Shown: positions 13,550-44,674 of the stretch, piece after piece
How positions within the stretch are numbered: position 1 is the stretch's first letter
How the letters are laid out: each line of letters begins with the position of its first letter
DNA from: Planctomycetota bacterium
GTDB lineage: Bacteria > Planctomycetota > UBA1135 > UBA2386
DNA: 64,000 nucleotides
Reading direction: 5' to 3'
Assembly (NCBI GenBank): GCA_046290465.1
Contig: JBKAGP010000001.1
Location: 5,760,001-5,824,000 of the forward strand
Notes under the pieces: generated by a model
What the model was told of the DNA's origin: nothing
What the model saw: the letters and a program-made list of their open reading frames with translations, nothing else
Databases searched by the model: none
Program-made: the position numbers and the translations under genes

Positions 13550-13556
13550 TTCCGTC

Positions 13557-14883: not shown

Positions 14884-16116
14884 ATGAACACCACCTCCAA
14901 CTTGGTCTGCTCCGTCCTCCTCGCGGCTGCCGTTCCGGCCGTCGCCGCCGTCCCCGCCCAGGAAGCGCCGCAGGCAAAGGCTGCCGAGGATGCGCGCAAG
15001 GATGCCTGGAGCGAGGGCTTCGGCCGCGCGCCGAGCTACCGTTCGGCGCTGGCGCAGGCGCTCGAGGACGCGGTCGCCAAGGCCAAGGGGGTGGAGGTCG
15101 CGCGCGGGCCGTCGATCCGCAGCCGGCTGGCGGTCGTCGCCGAGCACGAGGACGGCGAGCAGCGGGGCTTCTTCGACGGCGAGGCCGAGAACGAGCGCGA
15201 GTGGGTGCAGCAGCAGATCGCCGGCTTCGTGCGCAGCTACGAGGTCGACAAGAAGGCCAAGGCCGACGACCGGATGTGGGAGGTGAGCGTGCGCGCGCTG
15301 GTCGCCGGGCTCGACCACCTGGCCTCCGAGCTGGTCATCGAACTGCAGGACAACGACCTGCGCAGCTGGCAGCTCGAGCGCTTCGAGGAGGGCGGCCCCG
15401 GCCGCGCGTTCGATCGGCGCAAGGGCCGCTTCCAGGGGCCGAAGATCGGCGAGTACCTGCGTCGCAGCGGCGCCGTCAAGGTCACCGGCAGCGGCAAGGG
15501 CGTGAACGTTCGCACGGGCACCGAGCGCACCCAGCGCGAGAAGGCCGGCCACCAGCTGATCGCCTCGCACCGCGTGGTGATCGAATGGCAGCCGCTGGTC
15601 GTGCAGTCGCTGGTCGAGAAGCCCAACAAGGCGCGTCCGACCAAGGGGCCGCGGCCCGAGTACATGAGCGGCGGCGCGGTCACCGTCACGCTGAAGGTCG
15701 AGGACCTGGTGCACGACGTCGTGCTGCTCGACGAGACGTTCTCGGTGCCGGCGGACAAGCCGTCGCAGTGGTCGGCGGACCGGCTCGACGCGTTCGTCAC
15801 CGATCTGGTCGACAAGGCCAAGGGCGAGGTCGCGAAGAAGGTGTTCTTCACGCTGCGGCCGCCCGTGGTGATGCGCAAGTGGGCCGGCGACGGCGGCGCC
15901 TGGTTCGTCGAGGCGCGCATGAGTAAGCGGGTCGCCGCCGGCTTCCGCAAGTTCACCGTCGGCAACGACGGTTCGCTGGCCAACCCCGACTGGCAGGACC
16001 TCGCCACCGCGACGCTGGTCGGCGGCAGCGCCCAGTCCTGCACCTTCCGTCTGGCCGACGTCGCCGATGCCTCGCACATCGTTGCCGACGTCAGCCAGGT
16101 CCGTCCCGTCCGGTAG
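14884..16116 (+). CDS. Exported protein with FlgT-N/LPP20-like N-terminal domain
   Basis: Signal peptide; EGFG...ALAQALEDAVAKAKGVEV...GFVRSYEV...EVSVRALV. Confidence 0.6.
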   Translation: MNTTSNLVCSVLLAAAVPAVAAVPAQEAPQAKAAEDARKDAWSEGFGRAPSYRSALAQALEDAVAKAKGVEVARGPSIRSRLAVVAEHEDGEQRGFFDGEAENEREWVQQQIAGFVRSYEVDKKAKADDRMWEVSVRALVAGLDHLASELVIELQDNDLRSWQLERFEEGGPGRAFDRRKGRFQGPKIGEYLRRSGAVKVTGSGKGVNVRTGTERTQREKAGHQLIASHRVVIEWQPLVVQSLVEKPNKARPTKGPRPEYMSGGAVTVTLKVEDLVHDVVLLDETFSVPADKPSQWSADRLDAFVTDLVDKAKGEVAKKVFFTLRPPVVMRKWAGDGGAWFVEARMSKRVAAGFRKFTVGNDGSLANPDWQDLATATLVGGSAQSCTFRLADVADASHIVADVSQVRPVR

Positions 16117-16145
16117 CCGCCGCCACCCGGCGCAACGATCCAACC

Positions 16146-16562
16146 ATGAACGTCCTGCTCAAGCTCGCAAGCCTCTCCGCCCTGACCTTCCTCGCCGCGT
16201 GCGGCGGCACCCGGCCGTGGGCCGCGCTGCCGATCGAGGACGATGCCGAGATGGTCTCCAACGTCGTCATCACCGACGGCGACCTCTACGACGACATCCG
16301 CGTCGGCCGTGCCGGGGTCGAGCGCATCGAGACCAGCAACCAGCTCAAGGTGATGGTCCCGATCCGCAACATCTCGGACCGCACGCTGCAGATCCGCGTG
16401 CAGACGAGCTTCCTCAACCTGCAGAAGCAGCCGATCGGGGACGATACCAACCAGCAGGTCCAGATCCTGAGCCCCGGCATGACGGTCACGCACACCGCGG
16501 TGTCGAAGAAGACCGAGGCGCGCGACTGGACCATGCGCATCATCCCGAACAACAAGTCATGA
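16146..16562 (+). CDS. YcfL/DUF1425 family lipoprotein
   Basis: FLAAC lipobox; LKVMVPIRNISDRTLQIRVQTSF, LSPG, ARDWTMRI. Confidence 0.8.
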   Translation: MNVLLKLASLSALTFLAACGGTRPWAALPIEDDAEMVSNVVITDGDLYDDIRVGRAGVERIETSNQLKVMVPIRNISDRTLQIRVQTSFLNLQKQPIGDDTNQQVQILSPGMTVTHTAVSKKTEARDWTMRIIPNNKS

Positions 16563-17098
16563 ACCCGACCCGCTGCCTGTTGCCGTCGTTGCTGATCGCG
16601 CTCGTCGCGACTGCCTGTGCTGGCCCGGCGCCGCTGCCGCGCCAGCCGCTGGCTCCGGCGGCCGCGCCGACCACCGGGCCCGCCGGCGAAGACGGCCTCG
16701 TCGAGCGGGGCTTCTTCGAGCGGGGCCGCGTGCGGGCCGAGGCGGCCGAGCGGCTCACGCCGGCCGCTCCGACGACCGTGCCGGCCGAGCCGATCGAACC
16801 CAACCCCGCGCGGCCGGCGGCGCCGGTGTTCCGCTCGTTCGTCGAGACGGTCGAGGTTCCCGTCGAGCGGGTCGTCGAGGTCGAGGTCCAGCCGCGCCGC
16901 TACGACCGCTACGACGCCTACGTCGGCAGCCGCCGCGCCTACCGGCGGCGCGGCACCACGCCGTTCCCGATCGGCACCGCCATCGGTGCGGGGGTCGGCG
17001 CGATCGTCGGCCACCAGGACGGTCGCCGCGGTCGCGGGGCGCTGATCGGCAGCGGCATCGGCCTGCTGTTCGACCTCGATCGCTGGTCGCGCTGGTAG
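16559..17098 (+). CDS. Glycine-zipper lipoprotein
   Basis: VATAC lipobox, Pro-rich linker, TAIGAGVGAIVGHQ...GALIGSGIGLL; ATG overlaps the upstream stop. Confidence 0.75.
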   Translation: MNPTRCLLPSLLIALVATACAGPAPLPRQPLAPAAAPTTGPAGEDGLVERGFFERGRVRAEAAERLTPAAPTTVPAEPIEPNPARPAAPVFRSFVETVEVPVERVVEVEVQPRRYDRYDAYVGSRRAYRRRGTTPFPIGTAIGAGVGAIVGHQDGRRGRGALIGSGIGLLFDLDRWSRW

Positions 17099-17114
17099 CG
17101 AGGGCGACGCACGC

Positions 17115-18578
17115 CTAGAGCTGTCGCGGCACCAGTTCGACCTCGACCAGGTCGAGCCAGAAGTCGGCCGGATCGCCGTCCTCGAGGTCGGCGATGACCG
17201 TGAACTGGAAGTCGCCCTCCTTGCTGACGTGCCGCAGGCTCGACGTGCGGAACGTGACCTCCTGCTCGGTCGTCGACGTCGGCGTGAACTCGATCGCTGT
17301 GTCGTAGCGGTTGTCGGCGAGGTTGCGCACCGACATGCGCAGCACCGGCTCGCCGTCGACGCGCGACACCCGGGCCTGCGCGCGCACCCGCACCTCGAAG
17401 ACGTGCTCGGGCTGTTCGACCGGCAGCGATACGCGGCAGTTGATGCCGGCGATCTGCCGGCCGCCGCTCGCGGTCGTGCGCAGGTAGTACTCGTTGCCGT
17501 CGTCGTCCTCGATCTGCGACAGCGCGCCGAACGCGCCGGACGCCAGCACGATCACGATGTTGGCCGCGGTGATGTCGAGCCGCTGCGGTGTGCCGGCGGT
17601 CTCGGCGGCCGGCTGGTCCGGCAGGAAGGCGAGGCCGCCGTAGATCCAGCGCTCGTCCGGCCACAGCAGCGTCGGTTCGCCGGCCGTGCCGGGCGCGTGC
17701 GCGAGCCGCAGCGTCTGGCGGCCGGCGCCCGGCTCGGCGAGCCCGAACCACAGCCGGTCCTGCTGCGGGTCGAAGCGCGGCCACGCCACTTCGCCATCGG
17801 GGGCGAGCCGCACCGTGACCACGCCGCTCGCCACGTCGACGACGCACAGGCTGGCGAGCTGCTCGGACGTGCGGCGCACGAACACGATCTGCGCGCCGTC
17901 CGGGGAGAACGCCGGCTGCCGGTCGCCGTTGCCGCTGCCGACGGTCGCGCCGCCGTCGGTCAGCTGCACTTCGCCGAAGCCGCCGCCGCTGGCCAGGTAG
18001 AGCGTATGGCGGCCGTCCTGGTCGGCGCGGCTGAACACCACCTGGTCGCTGGCGGCCGACCAGTCCGGCTCGCCGTCGGCGAAGCCCATCGGCACCGGCA
18101 CGAACGGCTGCGCGTCGGCGCCGGTGTCGGTGCAGGTCCACAGCTGCGGCTCGCCGTCGCGTTCGCTGACGAACAGCACGCGGCTGCCGTCGGGCGACCA
18201 GACCGGGTGGTCGTCGCGTGCGCCGTTGTTGCTCAGGCGCAGTTCGCCCGAGCTGCCGTCGATCGACGACACGAACAGCTCGCGGCTCGACGGCTGGTCG
18301 TTCTGGCGTTCCCTTGCGAACACGACCCGCGCGCCGTCGGGGTGCAGCGCCGGGCGTGACTCGAAGCCGGTGCGGTCGGCGACGCGGCCGGTGCCGAGGT
18401 TGCGGTACGAGCGCAGCGCCAGCTCGGCGAAGCGGTGCGGCGAGTCGACGCGGGCGCGGCTGACCAGCAGCGCCGGCGGGCCTTCGATCGCCAGCGCCGT
18501 GCCGCCGCCGCCGCCACCGCCGCAGGCGGCGAGCGTCGACGAGATGGCGGCGAGCAGGCTTCGGTGGCGCAGCGACAT
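17115..18578 (-). CDS. TolB-like PD40 beta-propeller lipoprotein with extra C-terminal domain
   Basis: TLAAC-GGGGGGG lipobox; repeated P-x-W/F-SPDG (HPDG, WSPDG, FSPDG). Confidence 0.85.
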   Translation of the reverse strand: MSLRHRSLLAAISSTLAACGGGGGGGTALAIEGPPALLVSRARVDSPHRFAELALRSYRNLGTGRVADRTGFESRPALHPDGARVVFARERQNDQPSSRELFVSSIDGSSGELRLSNNGARDDHPVWSPDGSRVLFVSERDGEPQLWTCTDTGADAQPFVPVPMGFADGEPDWSAASDQVVFSRADQDGRHTLYLASGGGFGEVQLTDGGATVGSGNGDRQPAFSPDGAQIVFVRRTSEQLASLCVVDVASGVVTVRLAPDGEVAWPRFDPQQDRLWFGLAEPGAGRQTLRLAHAPGTAGEPTLLWPDERWIYGGLAFLPDQPAAETAGTPQRLDITAANIVIVLASGAFGALSQIEDDDGNEYYLRTTASGGRQIAGINCRVSLPVEQPEHVFEVRVRAQARVSRVDGEPVLRMSVRNLADNRYDTAIEFTPTSTTEQEVTFRTSSLRHVSKEGDFQFTVIADLEDGDPADFWLDLVEVELVPRQL

Positions 18579-18623
18579 GGGGTCATCGTAGCGCGCTGCC
18601 GCGACAGCCGGTATGACGCGGGG

Positions 18624-19661
18624 GTGCGTGTCTCGGAGTTCGCGTTCGACCTGCCGCAAGAACTGATCGCCGATCGCTCGGTGGAACCGCGCGATCAGGC
18701 GCGCCTGTTCGTGCACGACCGGGGCCGCGGGCAGAGCCAGCATCGGGTCGTCGCCGACCTGCCGGAGCTGCTCGCGCCCGGCGACCTGCTCGTGCTCAAC
18801 GACACGCGGGTGCGGCCGTGGCGCCTGCGCGGCCGCCGCGAGACCGGCGGCGCGGTCGAGTGCCTGCTGCTGCGGCTCGATGGTGAGGTCGGCGAGGCGT
18901 TCGTCAAGCCGTCCAAGAAGCTGAAGGTCGGCGACGAACTGCCGATGGAGGACGGCAGCGTCACGGTCGAACTGCTGCAGGCGTTGGGCGGTGGTCGCTG
19001 GCAGCTGCGCGTGCGGGCCCGCGGCGGCGACGTGGTCGGCGCGCTCGAGCGCTGCGGCCGGGCACCGCTGCCGCCATACGTCGAGCGTCCCGCCGACGAG
19101 GACGTCGCCGGCGATCGCGCGCGCTACCAGACGATGTTCGCCAGCAAGCCCGGCGCGGTCGCCGCGCCGACCGCGGGGCTGCACTTCACCGAGTCGCTGT
19201 TCGAACGGCTCGCGCAGCGCGGCGTCGAACGCGCGTTCGTGACGCTGCACGTCGGCGAGGGCACGTTTGCGCCGATGCGCAGCGAGGTCGTCGAGGAGCA
19301 CCGCATGCACGAGGAGGTCTACGAACTGCCGCCGGAGACCGCCGCCGCGGTGCAGCGCACGCGGGAGCGCGGCGGTCGCGTCGTGGCCGTCGGGACCACC
19401 AGTTGCCGGACGCTCGAGACCTGCGCCAACGACGACGGCACCGTGACGCCGGGCCGCGGCGTGTCGGACCTGTTCTTGTATCCGGGTCGCAGCTTCCGCT
19501 GCGTCGACGCGCTGCTGACCAACTTCCACCTGCCGGAGTCGACGCTGGTGATGCTGGTGGCGGCGTTCGTCGGCCACCGGGAGACGCTGGCGCTCTACCG
19601 CGAGGCGATCGAACGGCGCTACCGGTTCTACTCGTTCGGCGACGCGATGCTGCTGCTGTGA
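18624..19661 (+). CDS. queA: S-adenosylmethionine:tRNA ribosyltransferase-isomerase
   Basis: FDLPQELIA, LNDTRV, PLPPY, AAPTAGLHFT, LHVGEGTF, TNFHLPESTL, YRFYSFGDAML. Confidence 0.97.
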   Translation: MRVSEFAFDLPQELIADRSVEPRDQARLFVHDRGRGQSQHRVVADLPELLAPGDLLVLNDTRVRPWRLRGRRETGGAVECLLLRLDGEVGEAFVKPSKKLKVGDELPMEDGSVTVELLQALGGGRWQLRVRARGGDVVGALERCGRAPLPPYVERPADEDVAGDRARYQTMFASKPGAVAAPTAGLHFTESLFERLAQRGVERAFVTLHVGEGTFAPMRSEVVEEHRMHEEVYELPPETAAAVQRTRERGGRVVAVGTTSCRTLETCANDDGTVTPGRGVSDLFLYPGRSFRCVDALLTNFHLPESTLVMLVAAFVGHRETLALYREAIERRYRFYSFGDAMLLL

Positions 19662-27576: not shown

Positions 27577-27649
27577 GGGCGCGATCTTGAGCCGCACCGC
27601 CGATCGCCGCAAGGTCGGCCGGGCAGGATGCCGGATCGATGGGGCGTGC

Positions 27650-28275
27650 GGGTGTCAGGCCAGGCAAGTGGTTGCAGGCGAAGCCGCGTCGCCACAACCG
27701 GCGCAGTAGCACGGTGAGGATTCTTGCGCCGGCAGTCACGGCCCTTCTTGCGGCTGGTCCGCCGGGCGCTGCGGGTCACACGTCGAAGCGCTGCAGGTCA
27801 CTGTCCCTGCCGAGCGACCGGGGATGCTCGGGGCACAATGGAGCATGGTCGTCGCAGGTAGCCGTCGCCGGACTTGCAGATCCCTGCTAGGGATGAGTGC
27901 CAGGTAGCCGCTTGCGCCTGCTTGCCGCGATGGCGCGCGCGTCCGAGCAAATCGGGCATGCCGTGCTCAGCCTGGCCAGCACCTCGGCGTCCAGGCGATC
28001 CGGCTTCCTCGGATGCTGCGAGATCAGCTGCACGCGGCGCGGATGGCTGGTCGAAGCCGCCAACGGCCAGGTGTCGGGCTTCCAGGCTGATTGCGTGCGC
28101 CTCCGCCATGCTGCGAGACCTCCGCCGAGGCCTTCGCGATCGGTCGGACAGGCGCCTTGCTCTGCGACTGCATCCACATCGAGGGGCAGTAGTGAACTCG
28201 GGGTCGCCGGTGTCCAGGCCGATGGTCACGCCGGTGGACCAGTGGACACGCCGAGTCGAGGGGCGGTCGTGCTCC
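27650..28275 (-). mobile_element. IS110-family transposase relic, frameshifted and internally deleted
   Basis: Collinear fragments in shifting frames: VTIGLDTGD; ISLE; RRVQLISQHPRKPDRLDAEVLARL; PDLLGRARHRGKQAQA; GICKSGDGYLRR; GRDSDLQRF; AVTAGARILTVLLRRLWRRG. Confidence 0.85.
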
Positions 28276-28284
28276 AGTTGATGT

Positions 28285-29967
28285 TCAGCCTCCATTGTGG
28301 AGAGGCTGCGCAGGAGCGACCGACCCCCTGATCCGGTTTCCGTCGAGTCGGCGCAGCCGTGCCGCGACGACGAAGTGGTCCATCGATCCCGGGCCGGGCG
28401 CCACGTGCAGCAGGTGCCACGCCTCGGTCTCGAGGACGGCGGTTCCTCGGACGCGATGCCGAACCGGTGCCGAGGCCTCGTGACCGGCGGAGCCTTCCGG
28501 CCACCTCGTGTGCTCCAGCACCGTCTCGATCTTCAGGTGGTGCTCGTCGACACAGGCGATGCGCGCCCGGACGGCGAGGCCGTCTCGGTTTTCGCCTGGG
28601 CTCATGGCCTTCGCCCTGTCGGTGGGGCCCGGGGAGTCTCGGTGCACGCCTGCATCGAGCGAGAAGCCGCGGTGCGGACCGACGATCGCAAGGCACGCGT
28701 GGTTCAGGAGCTTCTCGAGGTCGTCCGGCTTGTCGGCCAGCGCAGCCCATGACCGCTCTCCGGCGATGGTCCCGAATCGTAGCTCGAGCGAGTACTGGCG
28801 TTGCTGGTGCCGAGCCAGGGCGTCCACCATGCCTCGAATGCGAGTCATTGCATCCGTGTCGCAGCGCGCGAGCAACAGACCGTTCTGGTAGCTCATGGTG
28901 AACGGGCTACCGTCCCACTTGTCTGGTTCGATCGTCGAAGTGAGCAGGTCGATGAGTCGCGACTCGTCGATGACCGGCGCGGCTGAATCCTTTTCGATCT
29001 CCGGGAACAGCGGCGCATCGTCGACCCCGGAGCGAGGAACCGGACGAGCGGCACCGGGCATGTTCGCAACGAGTGCGCCGACCGGGAGCACCAGACGGCC
29101 CAGATCACCGATTGCCGTCGATTCCTCAATCGGAGAGGGTGCGATCCAGGCTTCGACCGGCGCAAGTCGCCGCAGGCGCAGGCAGATTGCGTGCCCGCCG
29201 GCCGTGTTGGCTCCGACCAGCAAGCCCTGGCCGTTATTGAGGATGCCCGAGGCACGGACCGCTCCGGACCCGGTTCGTGCCGCCAGGGCAACCAGCAGCT
29301 TGCCATCGTGGGTCCGATTCGCGCGCACCTCCCAAGCCGAATCGGCGGCCTCTTCGCCGGCCTGCCGACGTGCTCCGGACTCGAGACAGATGGGGCATCC
29401 GATCGCGCCTCGACCGAACCACATTCGTCGCGGCTGTGACGCCTGCAGCAACGCGTCGAATCGTGTTCCGTCGAGGACAGGCTGCCGTCCTGCCACAGCG
29501 CCTCCAGGCAGCTCGTAGACCTCGATGAGGACCTGCTCCATCGCGAAACCACGCATCCGATCGAGCACGCTGGCGACCATTTCGTGCATCTCGGGATTGC
29601 AGGTCACCATCAGCAGCCTCGACTCGTCGGTGCGGATTTCGACGCCTTCCTCGAGCCAATAGGTGTAGTCGGTCAGGTGCTGCAGATTGTCGACGAGATC
29701 CGCGAGTTCGATTCCGGCGATCGGATCGTCTCCGGCTTCGGACTTGCGTGGCAGGCCTCTGGCCGCCTCGGAAGCCGGGTCGACTCGGCCATCGAGCGAC
29801 GGAAGGTCGCGGATCTCGTAGGGCGCGAACTCGATGTCGCCCCAGGCGAGCGCCTGAACGTCGTAGATGCGCGTCGACAAGCCGCGCTGCGCGGCGATCG
29901 GCAGGGCGAGCAGGCAGATTGCTGCCCAGACGGCGGCGACGGGCGCCACGGAACTCGATGTGGTCAT
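28285..29967 (-). CDS. Exported protein with two tandem, reduced secretin-like modules
   Basis: Signal peptide; TRIYDVQAL; two N3-like units (LLMVTCNPEMHEMVASVLDRMR...QVLIEV and LLLARCDTDAMTRIRGMVDALAR...QYSLEL). Confidence 0.6.
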   Translation of the reverse strand: MTTSSSVAPVAAVWAAICLLALPIAAQRGLSTRIYDVQALAWGDIEFAPYEIRDLPSLDGRVDPASEAARGLPRKSEAGDDPIAGIELADLVDNLQHLTDYTYWLEEGVEIRTDESRLLMVTCNPEMHEMVASVLDRMRGFAMEQVLIEVYELPGGAVAGRQPVLDGTRFDALLQASQPRRMWFGRGAIGCPICLESGARRQAGEEAADSAWEVRANRTHDGKLLVALAARTGSGAVRASGILNNGQGLLVGANTAGGHAICLRLRRLAPVEAWIAPSPIEESTAIGDLGRLVLPVGALVANMPGAARPVPRSGVDDAPLFPEIEKDSAAPVIDESRLIDLLTSTIEPDKWDGSPFTMSYQNGLLLARCDTDAMTRIRGMVDALARHQQRQYSLELRFGTIAGERSWAALADKPDDLEKLLNHACLAIVGPHRGFSLDAGVHRDSPGPTDRAKAMSPGENRDGLAVRARIACVDEHHLKIETVLEHTRWPEGSAGHEASAPVRHRVRGTAVLETEAWHLLHVAPGPGSMDHFVVAARLRRLDGNRIRGSVAPAQPLHNGG

Positions 29968-29989
29968 GGTTCGTCTCGGGTTCTCGGTA

Positions 29990-31792
29990 TCAGCGCAGCA
30001 AGGCAGTTCGCGCGACCCGAAGGCCCATCAGGCTCGAGGTGTTGGTTTCGGAAACCTGGGCGCGCGCAGCACTACGAAGGGAGCTCTTGCGGTGCCGATT
30101 GAGCAGCAGGCATCCAGCGTTGCCACCGCGCACGACGCGGTGCTTGTTGCCGTCTTCTTCGAAGGCAATCTGTCCGAGGTGGCTCGGGCTCTGTTCGGCG
30201 TAACTGTCCTGGCACAGTTCGTCGACGTTGCCGTGCATGTCGAACAGGCCCCATGGATTCGGTGATCGAATCCCGCAGCGGATCGGCTTCACGTTGCGTG
30301 CCTTCGGGTCGGTCCGGAAGGCCGCCTGCTGCTTGTTGAGGGTGCGTCCGAACGCGTACGGCGTCGTCGTGCCCGCCCTGCAGGCGTACTCCCATTCTGC
30401 CTCGCTAGGTAGCCGCAGGCCGTGCCCGACCTTGTCGAGGAACTTCTGCGCCGAGCGCCAACTGACCTTGGTCTTCGGAAGGCTGCCCTTCTTGCCGGCG
30501 ATCGGCTTGTTCGACATCACCTGCGACCATTGCGAGGCTGTCAGCTCCGTCTCCGCGAGGTAGAAGGCGCTCTCGATCAAGCGCGTGTGCAGGTGCTCGT
30601 TGCTATACCTGCCCGCTTCGTTGGCCGGAGATCCCATCTGGAACGATCCACCCGGCACCAGGACCATGGTGATGCCACTGCGGCGCTCGCGGACTCGCCA
30701 CGGCAGGCCCGAGTCGGCGATTCGTGCCAGGATCGCCTTGTCCTTGACCCGTGCCGGGTCGGGCTGGATCCGCAGGATGTCGGCCCAGACATCGATCGCG
30801 GCCAGTAGCTCCGCGTTGGTCGAGGCTTCCGCTTCTTCGACGTCGTTGTCGAGCGGTATCGGCTCGGGCGCGGGCCGACCGGGGCTTCCCATTCGTGGGC
30901 TTGCCTGACGCGGCCCCGTCGCTCGTTCGTCGAGCCTCCGCAATGGAATGTCGCCACCGGAGTCGCCGTCCCAGATGGACTTCGGCTTCTGCCGGTTCTG
31001 GCTCTGGCGCTTGACGCAGTGGTAGGTGTAGCGCGCCAGTTCGCGGAAGGTGATCCACTTGTCGTCGTTGCTCTCGGCATCTCCGCCCAGACCGAGCAGC
31101 AGGTAGTGCGTGAACAGGCCGTTGCGGATCGGCTGCTGGTGGTGATCCAGCGTCCCGGGCGTCGGTTCGAACGACAGCGTGCCGGGGGCGGTGGAGAACA
31201 GGATGCCCATGCCCTCGGCCTCGAACTGGTCGAGTTCGAATCGGTCGACGTTCGTGTTGCGCGACGGCACATTGCGGCAGGCATCTACGATCAGCATCTT
31301 CTGGCGCGCTTTGCTGAGAGCCATCAGGCGGCGCACGCTGTCGAGGTCGAGTCCGGTGATCGAGAGTCTGTCGGGATCCGTGAACTTCGTGCAGAAAAAC
31401 GGGGCCCCGCCCGGCTCCGAGAAGCCGTGCCCCGAGAGGTAGACCAGCAAGACGTCCTCCGGATCCGCATTGGCGCACATGCGGCGCACCTCGGACAGGA
31501 TCGAGTCCGCGTGGTTCGGTGACCGACGCGTGTCGCTGCGCATTTCGCTAACGGAGAACCCGAGGGTCTTTAAGGTGGCTGCGAGGTCCGCTGCGTCCTT
31601 CTCCGCGAATTGCAGCTCGGTCAGGTGTTCGTAGCGGTCCACTCCGACGACGACCGCGAAGCAGCTGCGGCCGTCTCCACGTTGCTCGCGTGGTACGACC
31701 ATGATGTCCTTGGTGGCCGGGGCCTGGGCATGGGTGGAGAATGCGAGCAGCAGCAGCAGCAGCGCGTTGGAGATCGCTCGAATCGGCAGCAT
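29990..31792 (-). CDS. Exported caspase-family (peptidase C14) protease fused to FGE-sulfatase/SUMF1 domain
   Basis: Signal peptide ...THAQ; VGVDRY, YLSGHG, IVDACRN, NGLFTHYL; then GGSFQMGS, RLPSEAEWEYACRAG, NPWGLFDMHGNV, GLRVAR. Confidence 0.93.
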   Translation of the reverse strand: MLPIRAISNALLLLLLAFSTHAQAPATKDIMVVPREQRGDGRSCFAVVVGVDRYEHLTELQFAEKDAADLAATLKTLGFSVSEMRSDTRRSPNHADSILSEVRRMCANADPEDVLLVYLSGHGFSEPGGAPFFCTKFTDPDRLSITGLDLDSVRRLMALSKARQKMLIVDACRNVPSRNTNVDRFELDQFEAEGMGILFSTAPGTLSFEPTPGTLDHHQQPIRNGLFTHYLLLGLGGDAESNDDKWITFRELARYTYHCVKRQSQNRQKPKSIWDGDSGGDIPLRRLDERATGPRQASPRMGSPGRPAPEPIPLDNDVEEAEASTNAELLAAIDVWADILRIQPDPARVKDKAILARIADSGLPWRVRERRSGITMVLVPGGSFQMGSPANEAGRYSNEHLHTRLIESAFYLAETELTASQWSQVMSNKPIAGKKGSLPKTKVSWRSAQKFLDKVGHGLRLPSEAEWEYACRAGTTTPYAFGRTLNKQQAAFRTDPKARNVKPIRCGIRSPNPWGLFDMHGNVDELCQDSYAEQSPSHLGQIAFEEDGNKHRVVRGGNAGCLLLNRHRKSSLRSAARAQVSETNTSSLMGLRVARTALLR

Positions 31793-32000
31793 GACTATCC
31801 TCGGAGTGCATCAAATCCCGGGATGCGAAGGCGTTCAACCTGTCGAAGGACCATTCGCCCCCAGCGGTCGCGATGTTCTGCGGACCGGGAGTGGGCGCTC
31901 GGGCGGGCGGCCCCACCGTTTTCCCGATCGTGGTCGGAGAGCCATCGGTAACGTGAGAATGGCCGCCCGTTTCGTTCGTCCGGTCCGCAGCCAGGTCGTC

Positions 32001-33368
32001 ATGTCCCATCCCGATCCCAATCCACCCGGCGAAAAGCCGCTGCAGGGCGAGTCCTTGCTGCGCGAAGCCACCGAAGTCGATGGCTTCAAGGTACTGCCGC
32101 CAGCTGTTCTCTACGCTCGAATCGGCGAAGGCGGGATGGGTGCCGTCTTCCGCGGTAGACACTGCCAGTTGGACATCGACGTCGCGGTCAAGTGCCTGCT
32201 GCCGTCGATGAGCGCGGCACGTCCCGAACTCGTGAAGCGCTTCACACGCGAGGCACGGCTCGCAGCCAGCTTGACCCATCAGAACCTGGTTCGAGTGATG
32301 GACGTGCAGCAACACGGGGACTTGCACTATCTGGTCATGGAATACGTCGCCGGTGAGAACGCTGCCGATCGCGTGCGGCGGAAGGGAGCTCTTGGCGAAG
32401 CAGAGGCGCTGCGCATCGTGCTCGGTGCTTGCCGCGGGCTCGCCGAGGCGCACCGGCGTGGCATCGTGCACCGCGACGTGAAGCCCGAGAACGTACTGAT
32501 CGCGACCGATGGACGGGTCAAGCTGGCGGACCTCGGGATCGCGCGGGTTGTCGCGAAGGAGGCCCATGGCTCTGACATCAGCGTTGCCGGCCGCGTCGTC
32601 GGAACGCCCGCCTACATGCCCCCCGAGCAATGGGACACTACCGAGGTCACGCCCGCTGCCGACGTGTGGTCGATCGGCGCGGTGCTGTACTTCCTGCTGA
32701 GCGGTGAGCACGCGATCCCCTCGGGCTCCTACCTCGAGATGGCGCAGCGTGTTCGCGATGAGCCGTTCCCGGAACTGCCGCCTGGCGCTGCCATCCGCGA
32801 GCCGGTCGTCGCGATGCTGCATCGCTGTGTGCAGCGCGACCCTGGTGATCGCTACTCCGACGCTGGCGCACTGCTGTCCGTGTTGCAGCCCCTGGTCGAC
32901 GAGGACGACGCATCGCTGGCCCATACGGTCGAAGCTGGCGCCCCATCGGGGCGCGGCACCGCCATGGTGACCCCGCCGCCGAGGGAAACCGTGCTGAAGG
33001 TCAAGCTCGAGATCGGCGGCAGTGCGGTGGCCGAGGATCCGAGCGCTGGCCAGGAAACCGTGCGCCAGGAGCGCCCGGGTGCGACTGCGGCGACGCGCGC
33101 GAGCGTGGCTCCCGTCGGCGGGGCGACGGAGCCGACACACACGCGTGCGGCGTGTTCGACGTCGCCTGCTGCGGACCGGCGATCGAAGCCGGCCCCGGCA
33201 TCGCCGCATCGTCCACGCTGGCCATGGATCCTGCTGGTCGTGGCGCTGTTGGCCGCCTCGTACGCAGCCTACGAATGGGGGCGCGATGATCGTGTCCATC
33301 CGTTCGAAGGGACGCCCATGCGGCCGATCGACGACGAGCTGCCGGGGGAACTCGGTCGCGGCAGGTGA
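32001..33368 (+). CDS. Membrane-anchored Hanks-type Ser/Thr protein kinase
   Basis: GEGGMGAV, VAVK, HRDVKPEN, DLG, GTPAYMPPEQ, DVWSIG; C-terminal TM WPWILLVVALLAASYAAY. Confidence 0.95.
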   Translation: MSHPDPNPPGEKPLQGESLLREATEVDGFKVLPPAVLYARIGEGGMGAVFRGRHCQLDIDVAVKCLLPSMSAARPELVKRFTREARLAASLTHQNLVRVMDVQQHGDLHYLVMEYVAGENAADRVRRKGALGEAEALRIVLGACRGLAEAHRRGIVHRDVKPENVLIATDGRVKLADLGIARVVAKEAHGSDISVAGRVVGTPAYMPPEQWDTTEVTPAADVWSIGAVLYFLLSGEHAIPSGSYLEMAQRVRDEPFPELPPGAAIREPVVAMLHRCVQRDPGDRYSDAGALLSVLQPLVDEDDASLAHTVEAGAPSGRGTAMVTPPPRETVLKVKLEIGGSAVAEDPSAGQETVRQERPGATAATRASVAPVGGATEPTHTRAACSTSPAADRRSKPAPASPHRPRWPWILLVVALLAASYAAYEWGRDDRVHPFEGTPMRPIDDELPGELGRGR

Positions 33369-33435
33369 GCGCGTGCCGCCGATTCCTTGACGCCTGCGGA
33401 GCTACCGCCTCGAATCTCAGTCGGGTGAAGCCCGG

Positions 33436-34254
33436 ATGCCGGCCACAACACGCACGACCTGCGAAGAGACTTCCTGCACCGAGCACGATGCAGGCGGCTG
33501 CTCGAGTTGGGACGATCAGGGGTTCGAGCTGATGCGGATCCTCCAGGCGAGTCCGCCACAGGAATGCCCGTTCTTCGAACTCGTGTTGCGGCCCAGTGTC
33601 GTCGCCGCGTCACGACGACTGCCTGCCAACATGCAGAACGAGGATCTGCTGAGTGAGGTGGTTCTGCGAGCGCTGTCTCGCTACGGCGGGCGGGGCCCGG
33701 CAAGCGGCGCCGCACCATCGAGACCGGATCAGATTGCGCAGTTCGTCAAGCGTGTTCTGCAGGACGTCAAGCGCCAACAGCGCGGGCGGCGACGCTGCAC
33801 CCAGTGCGTCGCATATCGACCGCACGAAAGTGCAAGTGGTGGCACTTGTACGCGCCAGTACGCGGTGGGCGGGGTTGCGCATGCTCACTGGGATCGCCAT
33901 CTCGACGTACGGGCCGAACCCCATCTCCTGGAGCCGCCTTGTCGCGAGTATGTGGGTTGTTCGACCGTGCCGATGCCGGACGAACAGGCAATCGCGGCAG
34001 CCTCCCAGGGTCGCAGTTCGGTCCGCAAGGAGGGCATGCGTATCGAGCAGCTACAGGAAGCCCTGGCACGGATGATGGCGGAGAACACGCTCCGCGGCCT
34101 ATTGGTCGTGCAGCATCGGATCGATGGCGAGAGCTACGACACCCTTGCAAGGCAGCACGGTCTCAGTCGCGACCAGGTCAAGCGTCGACTTCGTGACGGC
34201 ATGCGGCGGCTGCGAGAACTGATGCGTGATCCTGCCGTGAGCGAGGACTCATGA
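33436..34254 (+). CDS. ECF-type sigma-70 factor with Cys/His-rich insertion
   Basis: Region 2-like NEDLLSEVVLRAL; region 4 DGESYDTLARQHGLSRDQVKRRLRDGMRRLRELM; start uncertain (33436 or 33532). Confidence 0.75.
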   Translation: MPATTRTTCEETSCTEHDAGGCSSWDDQGFELMRILQASPPQECPFFELVLRPSVVAASRRLPANMQNEDLLSEVVLRALSRYGGRGPASGAAPSRPDQIAQFVKRVLQDVKRQQRGRRRCTQCVAYRPHESASGGTCTRQYAVGGVAHAHWDRHLDVRAEPHLLEPPCREYVGCSTVPMPDEQAIAAASQGRSSVRKEGMRIEQLQEALARMMAENTLRGLLVVQHRIDGESYDTLARQHGLSRDQVKRRLRDGMRRLRELMRDPAVSEDS

Positions 34255-35042
34255 GCAACGACCACCAGGACGACTTGCAGCCGACGTTCGATGCGTTGCG
34301 TGCGAAGCTGCGGGACAAGGTCGGCAAGTCCGTTCCGAGTGAAGAACTCGACGCACTGCTCGATGAGCGGGAAAGTGCAGACGAGCGCCGGAGGCTCGCT
34401 CACGCGGTCCTGGCCGACAGGCGTTCGCGAGCTGAGTTCGTACGCCTACTCGCGATCGATCGCGAGATCGCACGCGTGGCTTCGGATGCCGCCGATGTGC
34501 CGACCCCGTCGGCGCCGCCACGGCGTGCGCATTCGTGGATTGTCGGCGCCGGCTTGCTGGCTGCTGCGGCCGGCCTGCTGTTGGTGCTCGTGTTGTCACC
34601 GCCCGGAGCGCCGCAGTGGTCCGTCCAGGTGGTTGGTGCCGAACCGGCGAAGGACCGCAGCTGGCCGGGTATCCGGATTGCGCACGTCGAGGAAGCACTG
34701 GAATTGCGAACCTCGGAGACATCGACTGGCAGCCGGCCAGCGACCCTGCACTGGGTCGCCTACGATTGCCAAACGAGGACGTCCAGGGCCGCGCTGGTCG
34801 AGGTCGGGCAACCGGTAGCGGTCGCTTCCCTGTTGCCGAGCGGGTCCCCGGGTCTGCTGCTGATCGGGGTCACGACGGGCCCTGCCGCGGATCTCGCACT
34901 GCGGCTGCAGGAACTCGCAGCATCGGTGCTCGGTCGTGGTGGCAGGTTCACGACTGCCGCCGAGCTGGCCATGGCCCTTTCTCGCGACGAACCGCCGGCC
35001 TGGGCCGAGTCTGCGGCCGTTTGTTGCGTCCAGGTGCAATGA
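34251..35042 (+). CDS. Putative single-pass membrane anti-sigma factor
   Basis: ATGA overlap with the sigma gene; N-terminal PSEELDALLD...ERRRLAHAV...R resembles an anti-sigma domain lacking Zn ligands; one TM; C-terminal external domain. Confidence 0.68.
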   Translation: MSNDHQDDLQPTFDALRAKLRDKVGKSVPSEELDALLDERESADERRRLAHAVLADRRSRAEFVRLLAIDREIARVASDAADVPTPSAPPRRAHSWIVGAGLLAAAAGLLLVLVLSPPGAPQWSVQVVGAEPAKDRSWPGIRIAHVEEALELRTSETSTGSRPATLHWVAYDCQTRTSRAALVEVGQPVAVASLLPSGSPGLLLIGVTTGPAADLALRLQELAASVLGRGGRFTTAAELAMALSRDEPPAWAESAAVCCVQVQ

Positions 35043-35227
35043 GTCATGCGCCGGGCTCCTGGCCGTTCGGTCGATTCTCGCGGTGGGATTTCGCCCCATC
35101 GTTGCCTGCCGGTCCGCAAGCAGGGTGCATGGCGCATCGTGCCCTATCATCACGCCAGCGAGCCACGGTTCGGATCGTGGACTCGGATCGTGCCGCTATC
35201 GAACCCTCGCAATCCACCGGATCCCGA

Positions 35228-36751
35228 ATGAGACCCACCCATTGCCTCTTCCTCGTCGCCTCCATCGCCATGGCTGCCACCGTGGTCGTAGGTCAGTCCC
35301 AGCGTCCGGGGAAGAACGTCCAGGCTCTCTGCATCGGCATCGACGCATATCGGAGGGGCCCGCTGCCGAATTGCGTGAACGACGCCAAGGACATGCGCAA
35401 GCTGCTGCTGGATAACGGGGTGCCGGCCGGCAACGTGCGGCTGATGGTCGACGAGGAATGCACCCGTCGGGGTATTCTCGGCGCGCTGGAGGAGCTGTCC
35501 GGGCGCGCGAAACCCGGCGACGAAGTGCTGGTGTACTACTCCGGTCACGGCTCGCACAAGCGAGACCGTTCGGGGGACGAACCGGATGGTGCGGACGAGA
35601 CCTGGGTGACCGTGGAACTCGACCAGATTCTCGACGACGAACTCGAGCAGGCGTTTGCCAAGATCCCCGGCACCGTCTACCTCATCAGCGACTCGTGCCA
35701 TTCCGGTAGCGTCAGCAAGGGGATCGAGATCGAGGACGATGAGGAGATTGGCAAGTACTTGTCACCCGAAGAGATCGCCAAGGGTCGGGGTGAACGGGTA
35801 GCGGCGTCCGATTGGCGGCCGCGCGACATCGGCGTCAAGGTCCGCGAGCGCCAGGAGCGTCGCAACGCGTCCGGTGGTTCGGCATCGGCCGGCGGCAGCG
35901 TCGCGGCACGCCTGTTCGCTTCCTGCAGCGACCTCGAGGTCAGCGGTGCATCTCGTCGACGCCGCAACAGCCATTTCACCGGCGAACTGCTACGGGTGCT
36001 GCACGCGACGCGTGGGCGTCGGACGACGTTCGGCGAGGTCCGGGATGCCGTGACCCGGCTGCTGCGCAATCGAGCGTCCCGGTATCCGCAGAACCCGACT
36101 CTGTTTTCCCTGCAGGCCGACCTCGCCATTCCGATGTGGCTCGGCGGTGGTGGGGATTCGTCGCGACCGCAGGCAGCGGGCGCGGAGGCCCGCAATGCGG
36201 CGGCGCGAGTCAACCAGATCGTCGACGGATTGCTACGAAGGACCGCGCGCGCGCCGGCACAGCAACAGGACTGGATCGCCCGCCTTGGTACCCGAGACCG
36301 CCGCTTCGCCTACCGCACGTCGGAGTACCTCGAGCTGGAAGTGTCGTTGCGCGAGGACGCTCCCAAGGTCTGGTTGTGCGTGTTCAATGTCGGCCCGACC
36401 GGCAATCTGACCTTGCTCTATCCCAACGGGCCCGACGGCAATCACCCGCTGAAGGGTGGGCAGACCCTGCACGTAGGTGGACGTTCATCCGAGGTCGAGC
36501 TGCAGCTGAATGGCGAACCCGGACAGGAAGGCATCGTGGCGTTCGCGCTCGAGTGGGACCCGTTCGTCGGTGTCGATTTCGATGCACTGCTCAAGGCGGA
36601 CAATCGATTTCGCTTTGTCAGCGCAGACATGACCAGCGCGCGCCGGCGTGGGGCAGCGACCCTGATGCGTGCGCGCGATATCGGGGTCAAGCCTCGCCGC
36701 CGGGCCGGCGAGGGTTGGAGCAAGGCGGTGCTGACCGTGAGCCACCGCTGA
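35228..36751 (+). CDS. Exported caspase-family (peptidase C14, metacaspase-like) protease fused to DUF4384
   Basis: Signal peptide; CIGIDAY, CVNDA, YYSGHG, DEPDGADE, ISDSCHSG, QNP; C-terminal VFNVGPTGNLTLLYPN...GQEGIVAFA. Confidence 0.92.
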   Translation: MRPTHCLFLVASIAMAATVVVGQSQRPGKNVQALCIGIDAYRRGPLPNCVNDAKDMRKLLLDNGVPAGNVRLMVDEECTRRGILGALEELSGRAKPGDEVLVYYSGHGSHKRDRSGDEPDGADETWVTVELDQILDDELEQAFAKIPGTVYLISDSCHSGSVSKGIEIEDDEEIGKYLSPEEIAKGRGERVAASDWRPRDIGVKVRERQERRNASGGSASAGGSVAARLFASCSDLEVSGASRRRRNSHFTGELLRVLHATRGRRTTFGEVRDAVTRLLRNRASRYPQNPTLFSLQADLAIPMWLGGGGDSSRPQAAGAEARNAAARVNQIVDGLLRRTARAPAQQQDWIARLGTRDRRFAYRTSEYLELEVSLREDAPKVWLCVFNVGPTGNLTLLYPNGPDGNHPLKGGQTLHVGGRSSEVELQLNGEPGQEGIVAFALEWDPFVGVDFDALLKADNRFRFVSADMTSARRRGAATLMRARDIGVKPRRRAGEGWSKAVLTVSHR

Positions 36752-36831
36752 CGCGCGAGGGTCGGATTGACAGGATCGCACGGGTCGAGCAGCCCCGCTG
36801 CATCCGCGGCTCGAGCGTTGCCTGTCGGTAG

Positions 36832-42631: not shown

Positions 42632-43570
42632 ATGTTGCACGTCAACCACACCTCGGTCGATCGAGCTGCTCTGTGTGAGCGCCTGTTCGAGTTGTGGGAG
42701 CAGACCGGCAGCCCCGCCCTGGAAGCCCTGGCTCACGGTCGTCCTCCCTGCGAGGGCGCGTCCGTGGACACCGCTCAGCTGTTCGTCGACTGGGTCAGCA
42801 CCTGCTTGATGGACAGCTACAAGGACACGGGTGACCCCGCCGTGTTCGCGCTCCTGTTCGAGCTGAACCGCGCGTCCTTCCTCTACGCGATCCAGTGCAA
42901 CCTGCGTCGCTCGTACCACCACGTGGATCCGCAGGACGTGCTGCAGGAGGTGTTCCTGAACATCTACCGCTACCCGCACCGGTTCCAGGCGGACCGCGCC
43001 GACGCGTTCCGCGGCTGGGGGCACCGCATCGCGCGCAACACGCTGCTGAAGTTCCTCAAGGGCCAGACGCGCCTCTCGTGCTTCACGGCGATCGACGAGG
43101 AGACCGTGCAGCCCGAGGACGTGCGCGCGCGCCGACCGGATCGCGCGGCCAGCGAGGCCGAGAGCGCGGTCACCGTCAACCACGCCTACATGCTCTACCT
43201 GCAGCTCTACATGCTGCACTTCCAGCGGCTGTCGGCGAAGGAACGCCGTGCGCTGACGATGGTGGAGATCGAGGGCAGCTCGTACCGCGAAGCGGCCGCC
43301 GAACTCGCGATCCGCCTCGAGAACCTCAAGATGGTCATCTTCCGCGGCCGCCGCAAGATCTTCCGCGGCATGGAGCGCTCGCTGGCCGAGCTGCAGGCCC
43401 GCAGCGACGCCGCCGATGCCGGCCAGCAGCCGGCCGCGCGTTCGCAGCGCTCGCTCCGGGCCCGGAGCCGTGGCGACCGTCCGCTGCGTTCTGCCTCGCC
43501 CCGCCCCCTTTTCGACCGAACTCGTCCGCCGCAGGGGAGATTGTGTGACCGCGAAGCCTCGGGCGCCTAG
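42632..43570 (+). CDS. ECF sigma-70 factor
   Basis: DPQDVLQEVFLNIYR, FRGWGHRIARN; LSAKERRAL...EGSSYREAAAEL...IFRGRRKI. Confidence 0.9.
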   Translation: MLHVNHTSVDRAALCERLFELWEQTGSPALEALAHGRPPCEGASVDTAQLFVDWVSTCLMDSYKDTGDPAVFALLFELNRASFLYAIQCNLRRSYHHVDPQDVLQEVFLNIYRYPHRFQADRADAFRGWGHRIARNTLLKFLKGQTRLSCFTAIDEETVQPEDVRARRPDRAASEAESAVTVNHAYMLYLQLYMLHFQRLSAKERRALTMVEIEGSSYREAAAELAIRLENLKMVIFRGRRKIFRGMERSLAELQARSDAADAGQQPAARSQRSLRARSRGDRPLRSASPRPLFDRTRPPQGRLCDREASGA

Positions 43571-43615
43571 TCAGGCCTGAACTTCGCCGATCCCGCACTC
43601 CGCCGGCCTCTCCAC

Positions 43616-44674
43616 ATGCACTCCGCTCCTCACGACAACAAGCCCACCAAGGGCAAGCGTGGGCAGGATCCATGCCTGCAGATCCAGGTGGATCTGTCGG
43701 CGATGCTCGACGGCGAGCTGGATCCGGCGGGCATCCGGCGCGTCACGGTGCATTCGGACGTCTGTCCGACCTGCCGGGCGTTCTTCGACGGCATCCGCGA
43801 GCAGGTCGGCCTGCACCGCAAGCTCGCTGCGGCGATGGTGGTGGCCGACGCCGACGACCAGGTGGCGGGTAAGCGCGACGCGACGCTGCGTCGCCAGCTG
43901 ACCGAGAACCAGCGCAAGCTGTCGCGCATCCTCTACGAGCTGGGCCGCAACTTCACGCTGATGGGGCTGTCGCCGGAGTTCTCCCGCGAGGTCGCCAAGG
44001 AGCCGATGCCGGTGCCCGACATGGCGATGCGCGGCCGCAACCTGCTCGACGAGGTCGCGCGCACGGAAGACGGCGACGTCGACTGGGTCGCCGCGAAGGA
44101 CCTGTTCGACGGCCAGCTGCGCACGCCCGAGGAGAACCTCGCGCGCGGCCAGCGGTTGCTGACCGAGTGTCTGGCGCTGGACCCTGGCAGCGACGACGCG
44201 CGCATCTACCTCGGCCTGGTGCACTACGCCCGCGGCCAGCGCGCGCTCGCCCGCAAGCAGTTCCAGCACGTGCTCGCGCGGTCGTCGGACCTCGTGATGC
44301 GCGGCTTTGCGCTGTCCAATCTCAGTAACATCCACCTGGACGAAGGCGACTGCGACGGTGCCGTCGAGCTGCTGCTCGAACTGGTCGAGTCCGGGGTCGT
44401 CAAGGAGCAGCCGCGGCTCGTCGCCGCACTGTTCAACCTCGCCCTGGCACATGGCCTAAAGGGTTCCTTCGACGAGAGTTTGCGTTGGTTCGAGCGGCTC
44501 CACGGGGACGCTCCGCACCGCCGTCGCTGGGTCTCCCAGGAGCTCTCCCGCCGCAGCCACTTCCTGCACCTCGTGCATACCCACCCCGATGCGCGTGGGC
44601 TCGCCGAGAAGCTCCCGCAGTGGTTTCCCTCCGGTCCTTCCGTACTAGGGAATGGCAGGCTCGGCTACCGCTGA
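43616..44674 (+). CDS. Soluble zinc-binding anti-sigma (ZAS) protein with TPR repeats
   Basis: CLQIQVDLSAMLDGELD...VHSDVCPTC (HxxxCxxC); TPRs ARIYLGLVHY, ALSNLSNIH, ALFNLALAH; no TM. Confidence 0.85.
   Translation: MHSAPHDNKPTKGKRGQDPCLQIQVDLSAMLDGELDPAGIRRVTVHSDVCPTCRAFFDGIREQVGLHRKLAAAMVVADADDQVAGKRDATLRRQLTENQRKLSRILYELGRNFTLMGLSPEFSREVAKEPMPVPDMAMRGRNLLDEVARTEDGDVDWVAAKDLFDGQLRTPEENLARGQRLLTECLALDPGSDDARIYLGLVHYARGQRALARKQFQHVLARSSDLVMRGFALSNLSNIHLDEGDCDGAVELLLELVESGVVKEQPRLVAALFNLALAHGLKGSFDESLRWFERLHGDAPHRRRWVSQELSRRSHFLHLVHTHPDARGLAEKLPQWFPSGPSVLGNGRLGYR

Follow-up and report, generated by a model that had tools for sequence, protein, structure and literature searches.

The window, meaning the whole 64,000-nucleotide stretch of Planctomycetota DNA analysed here, carries an insert that on balance is best read as a horizontally moved, self-contained ECF cassette with positive feedback, in which exported proteases would release the sigma factor D from its anti-sigma factor E. 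The island holds its own sigma factor, inhibitor, kinase, and proteases with a motif before each unit, and so is probably a self-amplifying alarm circuit triggered from outside. Its features are as follows.

27625..36830, no strand: inserted island, 9,206 bp, with the pruA 3' end on one side and a carboxypeptidase-regulatory-domain gene on the other
27625..28284, no strand: non-coding left end of the island, without codon bias; the unconfirmed IS110 relic of the earlier note
28285..29967, minus strand: A, exported protein of 560 aa with secretin-like structure, its gene 22 bp behind B
29990..31792, minus strand: B, signal peptide, C14 protease and FGE-like domain (Pfam), 600 aa
31879..31905, minus strand: promoter-like motif CGCCC-N14-GGTCCGCA, 86 nt before B
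31964..31989, plus strand: promoter-like motif CGCCC-N13-GGTCCGCA, 11 nt ahead of the kinase, at the head of the kinase-sigma-anti-sigma unit
32001..33368, plus strand: C, Ser/Thr kinase (Pfam Pkinase) with intact catalytic motifs, 455 aa
33436..34254, plus strand: D, ECF sigma factor, 272 aa, model pLDDT 89
34251..35042, plus strand: E, class I anti-sigma factor with a four-helix domain, membrane helix and Ig-like outer domain, 263 aa
35092..35118, plus strand: promoter-like motif CGCCC-N14-GGTCCGCA, 109 nt before F
35228..36751, plus strand: F, signal peptide, metacaspase-type C14 domain (H107, C157) and DUF4384, 507 aa

Positions 27625 to 36830 are a true insertion, and the empty site is present in relatives. 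In one contig (run X9), just 20 other letters separate position 27624 from position 36831, and pruA directly adjoins the carboxypeptidase-regulatory-domain gene in six of nine loci fetched from genus relatives. The island status given in the earlier note is thereby confirmed, and the weaker GC3 bias it described is also real: the six genes have values of 0.78, 0.83, 0.78, 0.70, 0.75, and 0.79 against 0.92–0.97 in the flanking genes (four genes, scored in the right frame) and a genome-wide median of 0.94, with 7.5% of the 3,860 called genes at or below 0.83. All six genes are intact ORFs; the IS110 relic said to border them is not confirmed. None of the four open pieces at the left end has a Pfam match, PF01548 (the DEDD domain of IS110 transposases) finds nothing there, a plasmid search gave no hit, and comparison with six IS110 loci from relatives gives a sole transposase-like match of 11 residues (E 0.12). 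Neither a long terminal repeat nor a target duplication was evident at the island. None of the six genes is a cas gene, in agreement with the proposed independence from CRISPR. The lone CHAT gene of the genome sits 1.9 Mb away, and B and F are the only C14 genes in its 6.6 Mb.

Five of the six genes recur together at a different site in another genus (G488), as the proposal of a co-occurring set predicted. That locus encodes a C14-FGE protein, two more C14s, kinase, sigma factor, anti-sigma factor, transglutaminase, and C14-DUF4384; its module genes are 37–53% identical to those of the island and its flanks differ. An orthologue of F occurs in 2 of 339 genomes of the order, in this module both times, and the full module is found in only two genomes with genomic context; the sigma-homologue clusters P0012, P0016, P0020, and P0153-P0159 lack such context. 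A is outside the shared module, as it is not among the genes called at the G488 locus, and is probably co-transcribed with B. Its likeness to secretins is one of structure, its model reaching TM 0.67 to an Atlas cluster with 82% PF00263, below the Atlas naming bar. Domain searches gave no Pfam or NCBIfam match, PF00263 included. A paralogue with 32% identity is present in the same genome.

Both proteases have the fusions attributed to them, C14 with FGE in B and C14 with DUF4384 in F, according to Pfam. The His-Cys dyads (SGHG with DAC or DSC) are kept as H122/C172 in B and H107/C157 in F, and signal peptides, seen by eye and by hydropathy rather than with a dedicated predictor, support a periplasm-facing position. 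B is 42% identical to its G488 orthologue over 636 columns. C49, D52, S105, H107, D155, and C157 of F are invariant in all nine F homologues (reference TbMCA2 Cys92, Asp95, Ser156, Asp211), and the presumed mature start is Gln in eight of nine. Aligned to TbMCA2, F retains the S1 residues D52 and D155, which together with the dyad place it in the C14B class. D123, D136, and D137 match the TbMCA2 calcium site, with the fourth ligand, Asp220, being Lys164 by our own count. F is metacaspase-type, with predicted cleavage after Arg or Lys. A motif of the form [RK]-D-[IV] recurs across the two proteases, as KDIMV at residues 28-32 of B and RDIG at residues 199 and 483 of F. R199, R483, and K164 are invariant in 9/9 F homologues, and the next residue is Asp in 8, 8, and 6 of these, respectively. 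The pattern was defined after viewing the sequences and amounts to about three independent positions.

The D and E genes overlap by 4 bp, consistent with the overlapping transmembrane anti-sigma candidate of the earlier note. The model of D has two helical domains, sigma2 and sigma4 with no sigma3, as in ECF (group 4) sigma factors, and its best structural matches (Foldseek, VIA) are SigH, SigL, and SigW, which uphold the ECF assignment; its match to TIGR02937 has E 3e-6 at 27 bits, below the cut-off of 42.9. E has helices at 3-80, a membrane helix at about 92-115, and an Ig-like ectodomain of about 145 aa, for which no Foldseek match reached E 0.001. Its likeness to RsiW is middling (Z 6.2, rmsd 6.5, 67 aligned), and it aligns with zinc-bearing relatives. 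The zinc ligands H-x3-C-x2-C, which 19 of the 27 anti-sigmas in the family possess, are absent in E. Pfam finds no match in E, and among 25 anti-sigmas of the family two give weak DUF4384 matches (E 0.024 and 0.04); hhalign of E against F lands on DUF4384 with a probability of only 0.3%. The modelled D/E complex scores 0.72, with the best of three controls at 0.00, and so supports the predicted pairing. The mark used is reached by 116 of 157 solved pairs and 2 of 215 mismatched pairs, a calibration that is rough here as own alignments were used. At least 80% of contacts are common to the model runs, and partner pLDDT is 71-73; the pass may stem from likeness to solved sigma/anti-sigma pairs.

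A candidate cleavage site in E, K134-D135, lies beyond the membrane helix on a flexible loop and is not followed by Ile or Val. We infer cleavage of E by the proteases, helped by the resemblance of this loop Lys-Asp to their repeated motif. The KD is kept in the G488 orthologue and absent in L050, a third clade locus. As the anti-sigma search gave only E and one other cluster, two orthologues are the basis for the site. In other clades, many anti-sigmas have an R-G, R-S, R-D, or R-Y pair in a comparable position, judged by eye.

The motif CGCCC-N13/14-GGTCCGCA is probably the promoter recognised by D, as judged from its placement. Three of its five matches in the genome lie in island intergenic DNA on the coding strand (0.004 expected), and five of seven in G488 are on its island contig. 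In G451, held out of the motif definition and the same DNA as L050, the only match sits 1.1 kb away from the sigma gene. When called upstream regions were scanned with a weight matrix, the highest scores were those of B (25) and F (24), followed by 17.6 for the gene ranked third; the kinase site was missed, as the gene caller had used an upstream ATG at 31701. That start was rejected in favour of 32001. The apparent regulon is the island itself, and no target outside it is claimed. Inspection by eye of sequences from the CHAT-linked clades did not establish a promoter motif common to them.

Taken together, the favoured circuit would work as follows. At rest, the membrane-bound E is predicted to hold D, while the exported C14 proteases would wait outside the inner membrane as zymogens. 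An outside signal, perhaps caught by the FGE-like domain of B, may set off the processing of B and F behind the Arg/Lys of their [RK]-D-[IV] sites, as suggested by the S1 residues and the conservation of the motif. The active protease would then cut E at K134-D135 as a site-1 step, and a host RseP-type protease would finish the cut and free D; M50 proteases are present in the genome. D would transcribe three units, B with A, the kinase with D and E, and F, from CGCCC-N13/14-GGTCCGCA. C may be a second output or a modulator rather than an EcfP-type switch. The likely purpose would be sensing of envelope damage or attack.

It is less probable, although still to be weighed seriously, that the proteases and kinase are outputs only, with D and E sensing alone or via a host site-1 protease and E left uncut. 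The exported C14s, and in G488 the transglutaminase, would then process one another and have a role in remodelling or defence of the cell surface. The motif precedes the protease genes, as this explanation expects, and L050 keeps sigma factor, anti-sigma factor, and promoter with other cargo. As L050 has neither C14 nor KD, the sigma pair can do without these proteases. Peptidase neighbours also vary across the 28 family loci: clan CD in six, M28 in five, trypsin/PDZ in three, S41 in two, HExxH by eye in one, and no peptidase in 11. The scan covered positions +2, +3, -1, and -2 at ≥120 aa (87 proteins plus six of G488); the neighbours came from our own GC-based caller with some antisense mis-calls, so that the peptidase counts are minimum values, and related loci do not count as independent. 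Against outputs alone, the KD is kept in E at the two loci with the C14 set and missing from L050, and related layouts aim a protease at the anti-sigma factor, as shown for Csx29/Csx30 (PMC10028731) and proposed for DdvA (PMC11506125).

A further, rather doubtful extension of the circuit is a mobile protease cascade, in which exported metacaspases with swappable sensors activate each other at a single common [RK]-D-[IV] site and cut the anti-sigma factor, with the released sigma factor raising production of all components, a self-amplifying alarm for damage outside the cell. As parts of the same extension, the C14 proteases may be the detached sensor of a kinase without its own ectodomain, and D may belong to an undescribed two-zinc ECF family. 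The sensor domains concerned are FGE-like, prenyltransferase-like, and DUF4384, plus a dead adaptor in G488.

The cysteines of D form an N-terminal set (C9, C14, C22, C44) and a linker set (C121, C124, C138, C169). In other ECFs, the sigma2-sigma4 linker crosses the active-centre region of RNA polymerase. C121, C124, and C138 occur in 68/68 sequences and C169 in 67, while C9, C14, C22, and C44 are found in every ungapped row (55, 55, 60, and 64 of 68). A single-protein search with D gave none of 3,339 candidates; relatives came from profile searches, with only those of 99 matches that have the cysteine linker counted as members, and the tree is a quick version. The L051 locus was dropped as an ordinary ECF, and L050, from the same 4-row profile search, is a true family locus. 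The family is present in 21 of 401 phylum genomes. No description of an ECF family with two four-cysteine sets was found in the literature, although the planctomycete classifications of Jogler 2012 and Wiegand 2020 may cover it. The near invariance of the eight cysteines could indicate a metal- or redox-gated, CorE-like D with the anti-sigma factor and proteases as a second layer, since cysteine-rich parts gate CorE-type sigmas (PMC8999054). This is improbable, as the well-folded four-cysteine sites of the model (pLDDT about 90) would equally fit structural zinc, and an anti-sigma-like gene is present in all 27 family loci with downstream DNA, unlike the CorE group.

C is a membrane kinase as described, with one helix at about 410-425 judged by eye (under the hydropathy cut-off) and an outer tail of ~30 residues. 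It is 53% identical to the G488 kinase, with which it has RDDRVHP..RPID in common, while its paralogues in the same genome bear long outer regions. Truncation of C was rejected, as the G488 kinase has the same short tail. The earlier suggestion that the kinase gates the sigma factor finds no support in its EcfP form, in which C would activate D through phosphorylation at region 2.2, the mode by which PknT acts on EcfP (ECF43). C has intact catalytic motifs, and in both full loci the kinase gene comes immediately before that of the sigma factor. Nevertheless, such a switch is very improbable: where ECF43-type sigmas have a phospho-Thr motif replacing DAED, D reads Q-N-E-D, with the acidic residue kept, and close orthologues read G-D-D, G-E-D, or R-D-D with no switch Thr. 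Additionally, an anti-sigma factor is present, which is usually missing in ECF43-type groups as described (PMC8999054), and the neighbour scan of the other 26 family loci turned up no kinase. Phosphorylation of E, or of another site, by C is possible.

A chance gene collection in a decaying insertion would account for the low GC3 and non-coding left end, sigma genes being frequent in this genome (133 TIGR02937 matches), yet it is largely refuted by G488, where five genes recur together in another genus and the promoter motif is shared; all reading frames are also intact.

The island offers a candidate substrate site (K134-D135), candidate self-processing sites, a modelled D/E pair, and a predicted promoter, and draws attention to an ECF family whose two cysteine clusters include one in the sigma2-sigma4 linker. 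If the favoured circuit is true, CASP-like protease-to-sigma signalling also exists as a stand-alone, outward-facing mobile module.

Protease-sigma operons without CRISPR are already in print, in a 2012 metacaspase survey, DdvS/DdvA, and ECF54. The survey (PMC3501461) reports metacaspase-sigma70 operons in Myxococcus, Anaeromyxobacter, Haliangium, Sorangium, Ralstonia, and Fibrobacter and lists C14-FGE fusions and probable signal peptides as common. These operons, the promoter motif, and the sigma cysteine clusters lie beyond the first reading. The island is like the surveyed operons in having C14 genes with a sigma70 and no CRISPR, and differs in its two exported C14s, kinase, and eight-cysteine sigma factor; the passages of the survey compared here give no mechanism, substrate, anti-sigma factor, promoter, or cleavage motif. 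DdvS/DdvA of Myxococcus xanthus (PMC11506125) shares an ECF sigma factor, a membrane anti-sigma factor, and a periplasmic clan CD domain, with a site-1 cut proposed before RseP. However, DdvA is a TPR-CHAT fused to a zinc-binding anti-sigma factor with a CBASS-CRISPR regulon, whereas the island has separate C14 metacaspases, an E with an Ig-like ectodomain and without zinc ligands, and itself as apparent regulon.

ECF54 adjoins CHAT and subtilase genes (PMC7826278, PMC8999054). It is actinobacterial and proposed to work without an anti-sigma factor, unlike D, and the anti-sigmas of ECF25 bear a zinc domain and/or DUF4384; the descriptions of both groups in these sources set D apart, as two cysteine clusters appear in neither. 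ECF43 EcfP/PknT (PMC8999054) likewise has a Ser/Thr kinase gene beside the sigma gene, but D keeps an acidic region 2.2 and has an anti-sigma factor. In the type III-E system of Csx29, Csx30, and CASP-sigma, a clan CD protease cuts the anti-sigma factor (PMC10028731; 10.1101/2022.08.17.504292). Cas7-11, a CRISPR locus, and TPR-CHAT Csx29 are absent from the insert, and the CASP system is cytoplasmic and RNA-triggered through Cas7-11 with a CHAT protease, whereas the island proteases are exported. Nonetheless, the CASP sigma sites lie inside the locus in autoregulation, as the island motif does, and one Csx30 tail group is DUF4384.

The island at 27625-36830 of the window is a true insertion. 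In six of nine loci from genus relatives, pruA lies directly before a carboxypeptidase-regulatory-domain gene without the island; of the remaining three, one stops too early and two have different neighbours. The empty site is found on a contig of run X9 with a nearly identical pruA, where 27624 is linked to 36831 via 20 other letters. Six intact genes lie in 28285-36751 (B, C, and F assigned by Pfam):

Within 28285-36751, minus strand: A, secretin-like
Within 28285-36751, minus strand: B, C14 protease with FGE domain
Within 28285-36751, plus strand: C, Ser/Thr kinase
Within 28285-36751, plus strand: D, ECF sigma factor
Within 28285-36751, plus strand: E, membrane protein (anti-sigma), overlapping D by 4 bp
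Within 28285-36751, plus strand: F, C14 protease with DUF4384

Their GC3 is 0.70-0.83 against a genome median of 0.94, and the island is one of nine runs of at least four low-GC3 genes in this genome. The earlier note's description of the locus holds apart from an IS110 relic, which searches did not confirm. Further long low-GC3 runs (G000:C1:2933147-3013040, 3421485-3433686, and 3994599-4035647 of the host genome) are probably further islands. A 32% paralogue of gene A lies at G000:C1:5174811-5179586, near two genes of weak codon bias. At 42632-44671 of the window there is a second sigma70-type gene (TIGR02937 match 42884-43360); the next gene probably encodes a zinc anti-sigma.

A related module occurs on one strand and with different flanks in G488, a genome of another genus in the host's taxonomic family. 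Its C14-FGE protein is 42% to B, its kinase, sigma, and anti-sigma 53%, 45%, and 37% to C, D, and E, and its C14-DUF4384 protein 52% to F. Gene A is absent from this module, which adds a C14 protein lacking both the catalytic Cys and the N-terminal motif and a C14-prenyltransferase-like fusion, extra cassette modules at L061:6331-7227 and 4143-6209. It also adds an exported transglutaminase-elicitor protein (PF16683) with a TPR-like part, whose gene has a promoter motif to itself (L060:8713-10683). Among 339 genomes of the order, an F orthologue was found only in these two; seven further clusters of F homologues (31-52%) are known as sequences without genomic context.

A word search with D gave no close match and a weak match in one of 40 relatives. 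Iterated profiles found its family in 21 of 401 phylum genomes (E 1e-15), and in 69 clusters (E 1e-10) among 1.84 billion representatives, about 65 of which carry the cysteine pattern as read by eye. An alignment of 68 rows shows the linker cysteines C121, C124, and C138 in all rows and C169 in 67; the N-terminal C9, C14, C22, and C44 are present in every row ungapped at that position. The model of D (pLDDT 89) best matches ECF sigmas, and we infer that D holds two zinc sites. In a quick tree, D's clade comprises 11 rows (SH-aLRT 99); it occurs in three of 91 taxonomic-family genomes, the host, G488, and a third relative, G451.

In each of the 27 family loci whose sequence extends downstream, an anti-sigma-like gene comes next after the sigma gene. 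H-x3-C-x2-C is found in 19 of these anti-sigmas and absent from eight, including E. Two family loci carry a short soluble zinc anti-sigma of 84-87 aa without a membrane helix (L100:9348-9599, L102:9234-9494). The model of E has four helices and a membrane helix, with an Ig-like domain on the outer side. The complex model of D with E(1-90) scored 0.72 vs. 0.00 for the best of three controls. It passes a mark, rough here, that solved pairs attained in 116 of 157 cases and mismatched pairs in 2 of 215. Runs share at least 80% of contacts, which extend to sigma2 and sigma4 of D, with a partner pLDDT of 71-73. As sigma/anti-sigma pairs are textbook complexes, this pass may be owed to resemblance to solved structures.

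GGTCCGCA occurs in seven of ten intergenic stretches compared in the window and G488, each time with CGCCC 13-14 bases upstream. Of five exact matches in the host genome, three are coding-strand sites ahead of B, C, and F, and two lie within genes. Control spacer lengths yield about 1.5 matches per genome, hence 0.004 are expected in 9.2 kb. In G488, five of seven matches are on the island contig, one preceding a divergent exported gene. At L061:9688-12727, two divergent exported proteins follow a plus-strand copy and are probably further regulon members. Because the window and G488 sites defined the motif, G451, which was not used, is the real test; its single match in 5.7 Mb lies just 3' of the anti-sigma gene, before the next gene's likely start, with a chance of about 0.2% for a 10-kb window by our own arithmetic. 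As many as 79 of 91 taxonomic-family genomes have scattered matches, and a reversed control is of the same order, so only clustering counts. Every site combines two unlike halves at a fixed spacing, lies on the coding strand, and stands 7-109 bases upstream of a start, consistent with a -35/-10 pair. The island has no regulator other than D, and we infer that D reads CGCCC-N13/14-GGTCCGCA. A short tandem repeat, two copies of TCGGATCGTG, lies at 35168-35191 of the window between the motif and the start of F.

Linkage to proteases is strong in some clades of the D family and no rule for the family as a whole. A clan CD neighbour is present in six of 28 family loci (two C14, four TPR-CHAT); of the other 22, ten have another Pfam peptidase, one an HExxH read by eye, and in 11 none was found. 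The G451 locus has no C14 gene; besides sigma and anti-sigma it encodes two proteins that are probably exported, one of which shows HExxH by eye. The host genome has no C14 genes other than B and F, and its sole CHAT gene, an exported TPR-CHAT, also lies downstream of an ECF sigma and a membrane anti-sigma (G000:C1:3897047-3900566; GC3 0.86-0.90, near-native). The genome has 133 sigma matches, so this placement taken alone is mild evidence. In G023, a family sigma/anti-sigma/TPR-CHAT triad sits amid reverse-transcriptase-like, HRDC-like, and two TIR-NACHT-FGE-type genes (L003:356-5581 and 12141-19431), arranged as in a diversity-generating retroelement; patatin and TIR-like genes are also in the region. 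Downstream of three family loci (L035, L036, L040) lie exported trypsin/PDZ (HtrA-like) genes in tandem.

F most closely resembles Geobacter GSU0716, plant MC4, yeast Yca1, and TbMCA2. It retains three of four calcium ligands and the S1-pocket residues named in PMC4357240, where metacaspase specificity is given as Arg/Lys. The pattern [RK][DN][IV][GMLAV][VP], post hoc and with partly homologous sites, occurs seven times in the five C14 proteins with a catalytic dyad that the window and G488 loci encode, zero times in the other nine proteins of these loci, and at a genome background of 0.054 per 1,000 residues. In F homologues, Asp follows R199 in 8/9, R483 in 8/9, and K164 in 6/9; F itself has Gly after K164. 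B and its relatives carry the motif directly after the signal peptide. In E, K134-D135 lies in a low-confidence modelled loop outside the membrane; the G488 anti-sigma has PKDP at this place and that of G451 has neither. From sequence, these motifs and K134-D135 may be processing sites.

Kinase C belongs to a host subfamily and is 56% to a paralogue. Its four nearest subfamily members have long outer regions, two with FGE-like ends by eye, and the outer part of C is a short conserved tail only. Speculatively, the exported C14-FGE protein could be a detached sensor of C. The earlier proposal that the kinase gates the sigma factor did not survive for the EcfP type, defined by a phospho-Thr motif replacing DAED; D has QNED.

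The transcriptional half of the circuit is graded as probable, and the proteolytic half as plausible. The literature searched gave no account of the eight-cysteine sigma family or its promoter, nor of a cassette in which several metacaspases share one site. Related arrangements are described: metacaspase-sigma70 operons in 2012 (PMC3501461); DdvS/DdvA, in which the anti-sigma itself carries a periplasmic clan CD domain (PMC11506125); CASP, with protease cleavage of the anti-sigma and autoregulation (PMC10028731; 10.1101/2022.08.17.504292); and ECF54 and ECF25, which have parts in common with the island (PMC7826278; PMC8999054). The island operates like these systems and, by the features tested, is a member of none.
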